A stretch of DNA of 16,650 nt from positions 1 to 16,650 of IMG/VR virus record IMGVR_UViG_2737471869_000028, one strand, 5' to 3'. Each line of letters starts with the position of its first letter. The stretch's first letter is position 1. Made by a program: the position numbers and the translations under genes. The DNA comes from a virus (taxonomy: Duplodnaviria; Heunggongvirae; Uroviricota; Caudoviricetes). Below are positions 4,128 through 6,682 of the stretch, piece by piece. The notes under the pieces were generated by a model. That model ran no database searches, was not told the DNA's origin, and saw only the letters and a list, made by a program, of their open reading frames with translations.

Positions 4128-4240
4128 TAGTGCCTCCGTTTATCACACAGAACAACTTTACCATTTTGATAAATCATCCGCAATGTAAATTTATCATATT
4201 GCGTATTTATCCATTTGCTAAATAGAGGGAAAATTGTGAG
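4128..4240. promoter_or_regulatory. OR-like divergent operator/promoter region (pR leftward on minus, pRM on plus)
   Basis: Four copies of an ATTTATC(A/C) core (4138-4145, 4167-4174 inverted, 4189-4196, 4205-4212); putative pR on the minus strand with -35 TTGCGG (4178-4183) and -10 TAAAGT (4155-4160), an operator core in the spacer. Confidence 0.6.
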
Positions 4241-4945
4241 ATGGAAAACAAAGATATTCGCAAATCGAATCTGGCGTTTTTGCTAGATGAGCATAAAAAA
4301 ATCGCGGGTAACACTAATGCAAGCTTTGCCGATAAGCTTGGGGTTAGCCCTTCTCAACTCACGCAAGTCTCCGGTGAAAAAAGCACTCGAAACATAGGGG
4401 ATAAACTAGCAAGAAAATTTGAAGCCGCGCTTGGGTTACCTAATGGGTGGCTTGATTTGGTACATGATGTAACACCAATTGCATCATGCTCAGATTCTTT
4501 AACTTTTGTCGGTCAGGTAAGAAAAGGGTTAGTGCGCGTGGTTGGTGAGGCAATTCTTGGTGTTGATGGTGCCATCGAGATGACCGAAGAGCGCGATGGG
4601 TGGCTCAAAATTTATAGCGATGATCCAGATGCCTTTGGTCTTCGTGTGAAAGGAGACAGCATGTGGCCCAGAATAAAATCAGGAGAATATGTACTCATTG
4701 AGCCTAACACCAAAGTATTCCCGGGTGATGAGGTGTTTGTCAGAACTGTTGAAGGACACAACATGATCAAAGTTCTTGGCTATGACAGAGACGGAGAATA
4801 CCAATTTACAAGCATCAACCAGGACCACAGGCCAATAACGTTGCCTTATCATCAAGTAGCAAAGGTGGAGTATGTGGCTGGTATTCTGAAGCAATCTCGC
4901 CATCTGGATGACATCGAGGCAAGGGAGTGGCTGAAAAGTTCGTGA
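4241..4945 (+). CDS. cI: CI-type prophage repressor (N-terminal HTH plus C-terminal S24 LexA-like autopeptidase domain)
   Basis: 234 aa; N-terminal HTH (FADKLGVSPSQLTQVSGEKS); C-terminal GDSMWP serine motif and downstream lysine (MIKVLG) typical of S24 self-cleaving repressors. Confidence 0.85.
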   Translation: MENKDIRKSNLAFLLDEHKKIAGNTNASFADKLGVSPSQLTQVSGEKSTRNIGDKLARKFEAALGLPNGWLDLVHDVTPIASCSDSLTFVGQVRKGLVRVVGEAILGVDGAIEMTEERDGWLKIYSDDPDAFGLRVKGDSMWPRIKSGEYVLIEPNTKVFPGDEVFVRTVEGHNMIKVLGYDRDGEYQFTSINQDHRPITLPYHQVAKVEYVAGILKQSRHLDDIEAREWLKSS

Positions 4946-5027
4946 CTTCATCGTCACATAGCTGGTAACCAGTGGCCTGAAGAGACGTTTGGGTGATGTA
5001 CATAGCATTTCTGGATAAAAATACAGA

Positions 5028-5069
5028 TTCCCTTTATGGGAAATGAATCTATAATTCCCAAAGAGGGAA
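5028..5069 (+). promoter_or_regulatory. Putative higB promoter with two TTCCC-N5-GGGAA palindromic operators
   Basis: Perfect inverted repeats TTCCCtttatGGGAA (5028-5042) and TTCCCaaagaGGGAA (5055-5069) flank a TATAAT hexamer (5050-5055), 13 bp upstream of the higB ATG. Confidence 0.45.
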
Positions 5070-5081
5070 CAAAATCGGATT

Positions 5082-5369
5082 ATGAAGGTCTTAAACGTAG
5101 AGAAGCTTCACAGTTTTAGCCGGAAGCACAATCAGGCCAAGGGGGCTTTAGACTCTTGGTATGATGAAGTGATAAGAGAAAACTGGAAAACGACTCAAGA
5201 CATACGGAATAGATTTAATTCTGCCGACTTCCTTCCTAACAACAGGGTAATTTTTAATATAAAAGGCAATAACTATCGGCTCGTTGTCCAAGTTGTTTAC
5301 CAGGCAGGAATGGTCATAGTTGAAAGAGTTGGAACTCATGCAGAGTACGACAAGTGGAGGCTTAAATGA
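5082..5369 (+). CDS. higB: HigB-family toxin (RelE-fold mRNA interferase, E. coli YgjN type)
   Basis: 95 aa; core VIFNIKGNNYRLVVQVVYQAGMVIVERVGTHAEYD aligns with E. coli HigB (YVFNVGGNELRVVAMVFFESQKCYIREVMTHKEYD) as I recall it; the toxin precedes the antitoxin, as in higBA. Confidence 0.8.
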   Translation: MKVLNVEKLHSFSRKHNQAKGALDSWYDEVIRENWKTTQDIRNRFNSADFLPNNRVIFNIKGNNYRLVVQVVYQAGMVIVERVGTHAEYDKWRLK

Positions 5370-6022
5370 ATCGAACTAGCTGGCGCATCATTAAAAATAG
5401 TGAAGAGCATGCTGCAGCTATGGAAAGGCTCATTGAACTTGCGTCTAGTGATTTACAACCTGGAACTGAAGATTTTGATGAGTTTGAACTACTAGGCTTG
5501 CTTATCGAGCACTATGAGTCACGCGAGTTCCCTATGGACAAGCCAGATCCCATAGAAGCAATCAAGTTCCGTATGGATCAACAAGGCCTCTCTTATGCCG
5601 ATATGAAACAATACATTGGCTCAGCATCTAAAGTATCTGAGGTCTTAAATCGTAAGCGTCCATTAAGTCTTTCAATGATCCGTAGACTACATGACGGACT
5701 TGGAATTCCTGCAGATATCTTAATTCAAGATATGAGCGCAATTGAATGGAGCCTAGTTGACGCAGAGGAAGAAGAAACAGCCATGACTAGCGTCATTGCT
5801 CGGTGTGAGTCAGCCGTCACATCACCTTCTGCTTATTTCGCTGAAAAGGCTACAGAATCTTACTTTTCAAAAATGTTGTTCAGCGCAGTAAGGGGTAATG
5901 GCAAATGCAAAGAAAAACGGAATGTTTTTTCTTTGATAAGTAACTTGTCATCAAGTTTCACAGCGGCTAGCAACCTGAATGACGAAATGACTTCTGACGG
6001 AAATTACTTATTATTACCATGA
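5366..6022 (+). CDS. higA: HigA-family antitoxin (Xre-type HTH) with a ~93-aa C-terminal extension
   Basis: Residues 1-125 align to HigA, including the HTH GSASKVSEVLNRKRPLSLSMIRRLHDGLGIPADILI; E. coli HigA ends where this HTH ends, whereas this ORF continues ~93 aa; ATGA overlap with higB (5366-5369). Confidence 0.75.
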   Translation: MNRTSWRIIKNSEEHAAAMERLIELASSDLQPGTEDFDEFELLGLLIEHYESREFPMDKPDPIEAIKFRMDQQGLSYADMKQYIGSASKVSEVLNRKRPLSLSMIRRLHDGLGIPADILIQDMSAIEWSLVDAEEEETAMTSVIARCESAVTSPSAYFAEKATESYFSKMLFSAVRGNGKCKEKRNVFSLISNLSSSFTAASNLNDEMTSDGNYLLLP

Positions 6023-6423
6023 AAATTGAACTCATTAGCAAAAAAGTTGAACGCTTGGTTATGACACGGCTAGAAGGCGATTCAACAGCAAAAAAAGCCA
6101 TAAAAACAACCGTTAATCTAAATAATGAACTTTACACTAATGTGAAGGATTCAAAGCTATTTAGAGTGAGATATTTTGCCTCCGTAACTATTGAAGGCAG
6201 GCTTGAGATGGACATCACATACGACTTTGACTTCCGGTCAGAAGATGATTTTTCTCATGAAATGGCAAAATCATATGAGGTAAGGTCCATTGCTCCCAAT
6301 ATGGCATATCCCTATATAAAAACATATGCCGAGCAAATTATCCTCATGTCAAACCTTGGTAGGTTCACTCTGCCTTATTTTGATTTCTTGGCCAATCCCA
6401 TGGAAACGAACAGTAATAAGTGA
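6019..6423 (+). CDS. SecB-like chaperone (putative TAC chaperone)
   Basis: 134 aa; APNMAYPYIKTYAEQIILMSNLGRFTLPYFDF matches the conserved SecB region [33 protein letters not shown]; ATGA overlap with the antitoxin stop (6019-6022). Confidence 0.6.
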   Translation: MKIELISKKVERLVMTRLEGDSTAKKAIKTTVNLNNELYTNVKDSKLFRVRYFASVTIEGRLEMDITYDFDFRSEDDFSHEMAKSYEVRSIAPNMAYPYIKTYAEQIILMSNLGRFTLPYFDFLANPMETNSNK

Positions 6424-6432
6424 AATTCCCCA

Positions 6433-6458
6433 CCCGGCCTCAGCGCCGGGTTTTCTTT
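6433..6458 (+). terminator. Rho-independent terminator after the TAC operon (tImm-like)
   Basis: Stem CCCGGC/GCCGGG (6433-6438 / 6445-6450) with 6-nt loop, followed by TTTTCTTT. Confidence 0.5.
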
Positions 6459-6565
6459 GCCTCACGATCCCCACACCTAAAAACACATAACCAATTGTAT
6501 TTGTTGAAAAATAAATAGATACAACTTGCTAAACAACGCAATCCAGATCTCCCTCAAATCTCTTT

Positions 6566-6682
6566 ATTTATCCTGTCGAATTCCTACAACAAAATAAAAC
6601 ACCATAAGAATCAATACGATATTTGAAAACCAAGAGAATTTATCATTTTGCTATTGCCATTAATTTATCATTCCGATAAAGT
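6566..6682 (+). promoter_or_regulatory. OL-like operators and putative pL
   Basis: ATTTATC(A/C) operator cores at 6566-6573, 6638-6645 and 6663-6670; putative pL -35 TTGCCA (6654-6659), 17-bp spacer containing ATTTATCA, -10 TAAAGT (6677-6682), the same -10 and spacer layout as the putative pR. Confidence 0.5.

Follow-up and report, generated by a model that had tools for sequence, protein, structure and literature searches.

Positions 4128–6682 of a 16,650-nt stretch of viral DNA (Caudoviricetes; IMG/VR record IMGVR_UViG_2737471869_000028, positions 1–16,650; hereafter the window) very probably form the immunity switch of a lambdoid prophage of the H-19B, or Shiga toxin (Stx) phage, type, in which recurrent ATTTATC(A/C) cores represent operator half-sites. 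An earlier note, drawn from the sequence alone, had reported these repeats in the right operator region (OR; 4128–4240) and the left operator region (OL; 6566–6682) and had proposed that they mark a distinct immunity group. The repeats are real, and the immunity type is distinct from those of lambda, 434, P22, and 933W, yet it is not new: it is that of H-19B, which has been published and annotated in databases.

Between 3890 and 6900 (3011 bp), a span that covers cro, OR, cI, the cargo genes, OL, and the start of N, the window is 100% identical to the Stx phages vB_EcoS_ST2-8624, BP-4795, and Stx2a_WGPS9. Over the same span, nucleotide identity with H-19B (AF034975) is 99.5%, rising to 100% in the segment that contains OR and the start of cI (4060–4330). 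The cI and cro genes are near-identical to those of H-19B, the coding sequence annotations coincide, and the operators are shared, which places the switch in the imm H-19B group; no difference from the H-19B module is found inside 4128–6682, while outside it the window is a different mosaic. GenBank record GQ499358 ('immunity region; similar to bacteriophage H19-B') annotates four right operators (OR0–OR3) and three left operators (OL1–OL3), and all seven of its operator 17-mers occur once each in the window, starting at 6664, 6639, 6607, 4206, 4182, 4157, and 4139. A second record, KU238070, annotates oR1–3 in registers slightly unlike those of GQ499358, its oR1 and oR3 being displaced rightward by 2 bp from the dyads described below. 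A 2021 review citing Shi & Friedman 2001 (PMC8065619) likewise gives H-19B four operators in OR, and Chen et al. 2005 use H-19B operator sequences from Neely & Friedman 1998 (PMC1151598). Repressor binding at these sites is taken from the annotation and the literature; the analysis itself addresses sequence identity, motif enrichment, conservation, and promoter geometry.

Of 5426 complete E. coli genomes, 216 contain the immunity module. The switch controls the induction of Shiga toxin prophages, and its operators therefore matter for toxin expression. They have been described since 1998–2001 and are annotated in GenBank, and our check mainly closes the finding. What it adds is modest, namely an operator code across 34 related switches, an OR2 that is apparently mis-registered in the databases, and a suggested leaderless transcript from pRM, the promoter of cI; the latter two are relevant to modelling or engineering the induction of H-19B-type Stx phages.

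The organization of the locus is that of a lambdoid switch. The gene order is a flipped lambda map, in which cro is read leftward from pR and cI rightward from pRM on either side of OR, followed by three cargo genes, a terminator, and OL/pL leading into N. The cro gene (3894–4127, minus strand, ATG at 4127; 77 amino acids) is annotated as such in H-19B and ST2-8624, and the cI gene (4241–4945, plus strand; 234 amino acids) in H-19B, BP-4795, and ST2-8624; between them lies the 113-bp intergenic OR. These divergent genes thus surround a multi-operator region at 4139–4222, and a second cluster at 6607–6680 is situated at pL before N. Pfam matches and open reading frames (ORFs) for an S24 repressor, CII, and an N peptide likewise identify a lambdoid early region. 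The C-terminal half of CI matches Peptidase_S24 (PF00717; E = 3.8e-16). At the N-terminus, HTH_3 is weak by sequence (E = 0.004, under the Pfam cut-off), and an AlphaFold model of residues 1–82 (predicted local distance difference test score, pLDDT, 85) adopts a helix-turn-helix fold that is closest to Rep of phage SPC32H (template modelling score 0.80) and to the DNA-binding domains of the 434 and lambda repressors. As modelled, CI is composed of an N-terminal helix-turn-helix domain and a LexA-like S24 self-cleavage domain, as are the repressors of lambdoid switches. Sequence searches of the PDB with CI and Cro gave no useful match.

The ATTTATC(A/C) 8-mer occurs eight times in the window against 1.57 expected (200 shuffles, a single one of which reached eight). 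Six of the eight copies, in the forms ATTTATCA and ATTTATCC, fall within two intergenic regions of about 230 bp in all, or 1.4% of the window (4167–4174 on the minus strand, 4189–4196, 4205–4212, 6566–6573, 6638–6645, and 6663–6670); the remaining two are far off, at 14723 and 14938. The earlier note had treated this core as the unit and had not noticed its symmetry. Judged from the sequence, the core is one arm, or half-site, of a 17-bp pseudo-palindromic operator with the consensus TTTATC-N5-GATAAA. Matches to this dyad with at most one mismatch number four in the window, against 0.06 expected, and three of the four are in OR or OL. A weight matrix trained on the sites of relatives alone and then scored across the window gave the ranking OL1 > OR1 > OL2 > OR3 > a site at 879–895 > 4190–4206 > OR0. 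The site at 879–895 (TTTTTCAGCAGGATAAA; one mismatch to the dyad) lies inside an ORF of the nin region, 3.3 kb from OR, and is probably a chance match; it was rejected as a distal operator because Sf6 and Oslo-type phages, which have other immunities, carry the same DNA.

The right operators were examined across 21 distinct OR haplotypes, collected from IMG/VR contigs and from chromosomes of E. coli; four of them were compared for the CI N-terminal domain, which is 100% identical. Although 23 of the 113 OR positions vary, the 36 consensus-like half-site positions carry just two of these changes, both singletons (hypergeometric P = 0.005), and the spacers between operators change often. OR1 (4157–4173; TTTACCATTTTGATAAA; one mismatch to the dyad), as annotated in GQ499358, shows a single change, a singleton at the central base. 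OR3 (4206–4222; TTTATCCATTTGCTAAA), also annotated there, carries one singleton change and covers the predicted -35 element of pRM and part of its spacer. OR0 (4139–4155; GTTTATCA (TTTATCACACAGAACAA); annotated in GQ499358; two mismatches) sits between the pR -10 element and the Shine-Dalgarno sequence of cro, over the predicted pR start. Its left half is unchanged save in one haplotype and its right half is variable. Across the haplotypes, the OR intergenic region diverges by 4–12%, the gap between cII and cro by more than 20%, and the cI gene by only about 1%. The OR substitutions are concentrated between the operators and at the final three bases of the pR -35 element; promoter strength may be tuned in this way, or recombination may have its breakpoints here.

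The left operators, compared across 19 OL haplotypes, show the same selectivity. OL1 (6664–6680; TTTATCATTCCGATAAA), annotated in GQ499358, is the perfect dyad TTTATC-ATTCC-GATAAA with zero mismatches; its variation is limited to the central N5, and the dyad is perfect in all relatives examined. It extends from the pL spacer into the -10 element, of which it takes in the first four bases. OL2 (6639–6655; TTTATCATTTTGCTATT; annotated in GQ499358) is invariant in the 19 haplotypes and overlaps the pL -35 element by 2 bp. Its 17-mer TTTATCATTTTGCTATT, non-consensus arm included, is identical in E. coli, Klebsiella, Erwinia, and the other relatives examined (L059–L062) despite diverged flanks, and this identity across genera suggests a constraint beyond simple dyad recognition. 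OL3 (6607–6623; AGAATCAATACGATATT), annotated in GQ499358, is degenerate, with a core, AATC...GATATT, that is invariant while outer and central positions change. Relatives carry better OL3 dyads, such as TTAATCATCAAGATAAA, at -57 or -58 from OL1, and across them OL1, OL2, and OL3 are placed at 0, -25, and -57/-58. The earlier note was right about the function of the two regions and missed OR0 and OL3. Its left edge of OL is probably not an operator: the site at 6567–6583 is not conserved, ranks 87th with the weight matrix, and is unannotated, and the core at 6566 is substituted in the major alternative OL haplotype. In the window this site is an isolated consensus half-site, TTTATCCTGTCGAATTC, which lies upstream of OL1 by about 97 bp. 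It is lost from the main alternative haplotype (L005, 5680–5696), which contains TTATTCCTTCTGATAAA, with two mismatches, 3 bp to the left; turnover that maintains a weak fourth OL site near 6567–6583 may account for this.

The promoters that the earlier note proposed are exact in their hexamers and are supported by alignment of pL with HK97 and by 34 related OR regions. On the minus strand, pR (4183–4155) consists of a -35 element TTGCGG (4183–4178), a 17-nt spacer, and a -10 element TAAAGT (4160–4155); its start is predicted near 4148, from which it would drive cro. TTGnnn-17-TAAA(C/G)T is found at pR in 34 of 34 family members (with a 16-nt spacer in two), and among the 21 haplotypes the -10 element is unchanged and the last three positions of the -35 element change often. 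On the plus strand, pL (6654–6689) consists of TTGCCA (6654–6659), a 17-nt spacer, and TAAAGT (6677–6682). It is among the matches of a generic promoter scan (9/12), aligns hexamer by hexamer with the lambda-type pL of HK97 (TTGACA/GATACT), and precedes a transcribed leader, ATCAGCAGGACGCAC..., that is conserved from the lambda pL start (+1), which places the predicted +1 at A6689, from where pL would drive N. Divergence between HK97 and the window is limited to about 6553–6688, marking the boundary of the immunity module.

The leader at 6690–6790 is near-identical to its counterparts in HK97 and 933W-type phages, and the initial portion corresponds to the nutL that is annotated in GQ499363. 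It contains an inverted repeat GCGCT-GACAA-AGCGC (6751–6765) and a hairpin CCAAAG-TGAA-CTTTGG (6771–6786), which resemble N-utilisation elements.

At both promoters, O1 extends from spacer position 5 to -10 position 4. This overlap explains why both -10 hexamers begin with TAAA and hence why pR and pL share TAAAGT. The earlier note had proposed a distinct group with the repressor bound in the promoter spacer, but such binding does not set the group apart: O1 also covers four -10 bases, as OR1 does at the lambda-type pR of HK97. In sequence geometry, both early promoters have operators lying across their -10 and -35 elements, as lambdoid occlusion requires.

The cI promoter, pRM, is predicted on the plus strand at 4206–4241, with a -35 element TTTATC (4206–4211), a 17-nt spacer, a -10 element GAAAAT (4229–4234), and 6 nt to the A of the cI ATG (4241). 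An xAxxxT hexamer (GAGAAT, GAAAAT, GAGACT, and others) is present at -12 to -7 from this ATG in 34 of 34 relatives, and a TG at -15/-14 in 31 of the 34. The geometry is equal to that of the lambda-type pRM of HK97, in which TAGATT is followed by 6 nt and the ATG. The conserved hexamer 6 nt before the start codon and the match to HK97 together suggest that cI is expressed from a leaderless pRM transcript starting at 4241.

Distant relatives extend these observations beyond E. coli. A search with the full-length repressor, which was needed because the N-terminal fragment alone returned only partial proteins, retrieved relatives in Klebsiella, Serratia, Erwinia, and metagenomes with N-terminal domains that are 53–73% identical; in these, a Cro homologue of 76–77 amino acids (61–73% identity) is divergently paired with the repressor. 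Comparison of 34 distinct OR regions (from E. coli, Klebsiella, Serratia, Erwinia, and viral contigs; CI N-terminal domains 51–100% identical) reveals a fixed architecture. OR1, with the form TTTA(T/G)C-N5-G(A/C)TAAA, is a perfect or near-perfect dyad in 34 of 34; a TTTA(T/G)C-N5-GnnyAT site begins 32 or 33 bp past the OR1 start; and OR3 begins exactly 16 bp later, with its start exactly 35 nt before the cI ATG in all 34. The position equivalent to OR0 is loosely conserved. Two half-site classes, TTTATC/GATAAA and TTTAGC/GCTAAA, are observed at OR1 and OR2 of the relatives (L063, L066, and L115–L146), and at OR3 nearly all have the hybrid TTTATC-N5-GCTAAA, which is also the form in the window. 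Among the same relatives no simple correlation is evident between half-site class and the sequence of the recognition helix.

The register of OR2 differs from source to source. GenBank places this operator at 4182–4198 (GQ499358) or at 4185–4201 (KU238070), and the comparative placement is 4190–4206 (TTTATCATATTGCGTAT), a site with a consensus left half and a weak right half that overlaps OR3 by 1 bp. The comparative placement is favoured by a TTTA(T/G)C that precedes OR3 by exactly 16 bp in each of the 34 relatives. Haplotype changes within 4190–4206 are confined to the central N5 and the weak right half, and the site ranks 6th in the window with the family weight matrix, as against 1963rd for 4182–4198 and 10478th for the other GenBank register. 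It is rather unlikely, though far from negligible, that OR2 instead occupies 4182–4198 in a fully lambda-like layout, as a low-affinity, non-consensus site that is filled only with help from OR1 and of which the TTTATC at 4190–4195 is a mere part. The GQ499358 assignment probably follows published H-19B footprints, and a site at 4182–4198 would lie 25 bp from OR1 with a 2-bp overlap with the pR -35 element, an exact mirror of OL2 at pL; the number of variable positions, four, is the same in both registers. Against this, neither half of 4182–4198 resembles any other half-site, its left half (4182–4189) varies among haplotypes with identical CI and is not kept in relatives, and KU238070 gives yet another OR2. 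Because the GenBank register fits no half-site and varies among haplotypes, and because the alternative site is conserved in relatives, OR2 is probably at 4190–4206. Lambda OR2 is centred at -42. The center of 4190–4206 is at -43 from the cI ATG (that of 4182–4198 is at -51), suggesting by analogy with lambda that the site is placed where an activating repressor dimer would sit. A broader reading, to which we give slightly less than an even chance, is that OR is built as a conserved composite and not as an evenly spaced, lambda-like triplet with one extra site: OR2 would have one base pair in common with OR3 and lie three helical turns from OR1, and OR3 would serve as the -35 element of an extended -10 promoter giving a leaderless cI mRNA. 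Such a composite would define a previously undelimited CI/Cro family spanning prophages of E. coli, Klebsiella, Serratia, and Erwinia with a TTTA(T/G)C-N5-G(A/C)TAAA code, and would mean that the databases give OR2 in a wrong register.

The A/T-rich repeats might have an origin other than repressor binding. They could be promoter elements (an UP-element, or -10 and -35 look-alikes) or sites for a host protein or a HigA-like protein, in which case their recurrence would reflect a common promoter architecture. The half-sites do look like promoter hexamers, given that TTTATC is the predicted pRM -35 element, GATAAA overlaps the -10 elements of pR and pL, and an extra promoter-like match arises from them; moreover, a gene for an antitoxin-like helix-turn-helix protein lies between OR and OL. 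We nevertheless regard this explanation as very improbable, as the dyad symmetry is kept with a fixed 5-bp center whose sequence is freely variable, and the sites accompany the CI/Cro pair across genera while the cargo, higBA included, is exchanged. Furthermore, 933W-type phages carry the same repressor C-terminal domain with unrelated operators, and the sites in question are annotated as repressor binding sites (GQ499358). Mere chance in A/T-rich intergenic DNA has still less to recommend it. OR and OL are indeed both A/T-rich, and there are the outlying 8-mers at 14723 and 14938 and the operator-like 17-mer at 879–895, but the excess of 8-mers, their concentration, and the excess of dyads given above all argue otherwise. 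In addition, the sites are selectively conserved across haplotypes and genera, and the related CI proteins are 51–73% identical, so these are not recent copies. The conservation data effectively refute chance clustering.

Several observations nonetheless count against interpreting the region as a switch of this kind in every detail. The pR -35 element is weak (3/6 to consensus), and pR fails the generic promoter scan, in which it is outscored by a minus-strand TTAGCA-17-TATGAT (4221–4193). At pRM, the extended -10 TG common among relatives is absent from this window, and a Shine-Dalgarno-like GAGGG (4225) precedes the cI ATG; a pRM transcript with a short leader may thus be the alternative to a leaderless cI mRNA. 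The disagreement over OR2 between GQ499358, KU238070, and the comparative placement belongs here as well. Finally, the 933W repressor, which has the same C-terminal domain, binds non-cooperatively according to a review (PMC3202840), and lambda-style cooperativity may, by analogy, not apply to H-19B-type CI. The minus-strand site that outscores pR (9/12) is itself made of OR3 and OR2 half-sites, lies upstream of pR, and is aimed at cro; relatives have versions of it, which derive from their operators.

A working mechanism can be outlined for the H-19B-type switch. Dimers of CI, through the helix-turn-helix, and Cro would bind the seven 17-bp dyads, namely OR0–OR3 to the right and OL1–OL3 to the left. 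CI at O1 would exclude RNA polymerase from pR and pL, with further sites positioned at OL2 (overlapping the pL -35 element), OR0 (over the pR start), and OR3 (over the pRM -35 element and spacer). A dimer at OR2, if this operator is at 4190–4206 (center -43), would activate leaderless pRM, and RecA-stimulated self-cleavage of the S24 domain would lift repression.

The earlier note had called the operators unlike those of lambda, 434, and P22, and had recommended alignment with other lambdoid immunity regions. Comparison supports the claim: the cores match H-19B and are unrelated to the lambda-type operators of HK97 and to those of 933W-type phages. Direct sequence comparison, which covered these two types, found neither the lambda-type nor the 933W-type operator consensus here. 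With lambda, as represented by HK97, the switch shares gene order, 17-bp dyads, the placement of O1, an O2 that touches the -35 element, three OL sites, the -10 hexamer 6 nt before the cI ATG, and a positionally homologous pL and leader. It differs in its operators (TATCACCGC... in HK97, TTTATC-N5-GATAAA here), in a repressor N-terminal domain of unrelated sequence, in the additional OR0, and in the comparative OR2, which lies 16 bp center-to-center from OR3 and 33 bp from OR1; lambda operator spacings are 24 and 23 bp. HK97 matched an OL query at 74% identity and was set aside, as its operators are lambda-type and the likeness is in the flanks (terminator and pL leader/nutL). The CI N-terminal domain is predicted to have a fold of the 434/XRE class, and the operators follow the style of 434 and P22 c2, with conserved outer arms and a variable, apparently non-contacted center. 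The P22 half-site ATTTAAG has the same first five bases as ATTTATC. Arm sequence and length of the center differ from those of the TTTATC dyad, however, in both the 434 operator (ACAA-N6-TTGT, 14 bp) and the 18-bp P22 operator.

The 933W-type phages (Stx2 phages; GQ499363) encode a repressor whose C-terminal (S24/oligomerisation) domain matches that of the window at about 98% DNA identity, and the switch layout and the nutL segment are also alike. By contrast, the N-terminal DNA-binding domain differs, the operators are 15–16-bp GAAC/GTAC dyads, and two OL sites are annotated. This combination of near-identical C-terminal DNA with unrelated operators indicates that specificity resides in a swapped N-terminal domain together with the operators, which agrees with PMC3202840. 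A relationship with HK022, considered for its reported 53-bp gap between OL2 and OL3 and its distal operator, was dropped because the HK022 DNA-binding domain matches that of 933W and not that of H-19B, as stated in the same review (PMC3202840).

The remaining genes of the region are as follows. The cII gene occupies 3459–3755 on the minus strand, beyond cro. On the other side of OR, a HigB-like gene (5082–5369), a helix-turn-helix gene (HTH_3, HigA-like; 5366–6022), and an ORF of 134 amino acids and unknown function (6019–6423) make up the cargo, followed by an intrinsic terminator (6432–6451), by the A/T-rich intergenic OL, and by N (6895–7278). The HigB toxin gene, the HigA-like gene, and the 134-amino-acid ORF (5082–6423) separate cI from OL and take the place that rex has in lambda; elsewhere the module carries at this position an SDH-family Clp-fold protease, a DUF3024 protein, a BstA-like protein, or others. 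With the stretches at 1–3890 and 7300–16650 included, the window is a novel mosaic of which the best phage record covers at most 42%, joining the H-19B immunity module to a replication module with a DnaB-type helicase, like that of Stx2 phage 86, and to a RecT-type recombinase.

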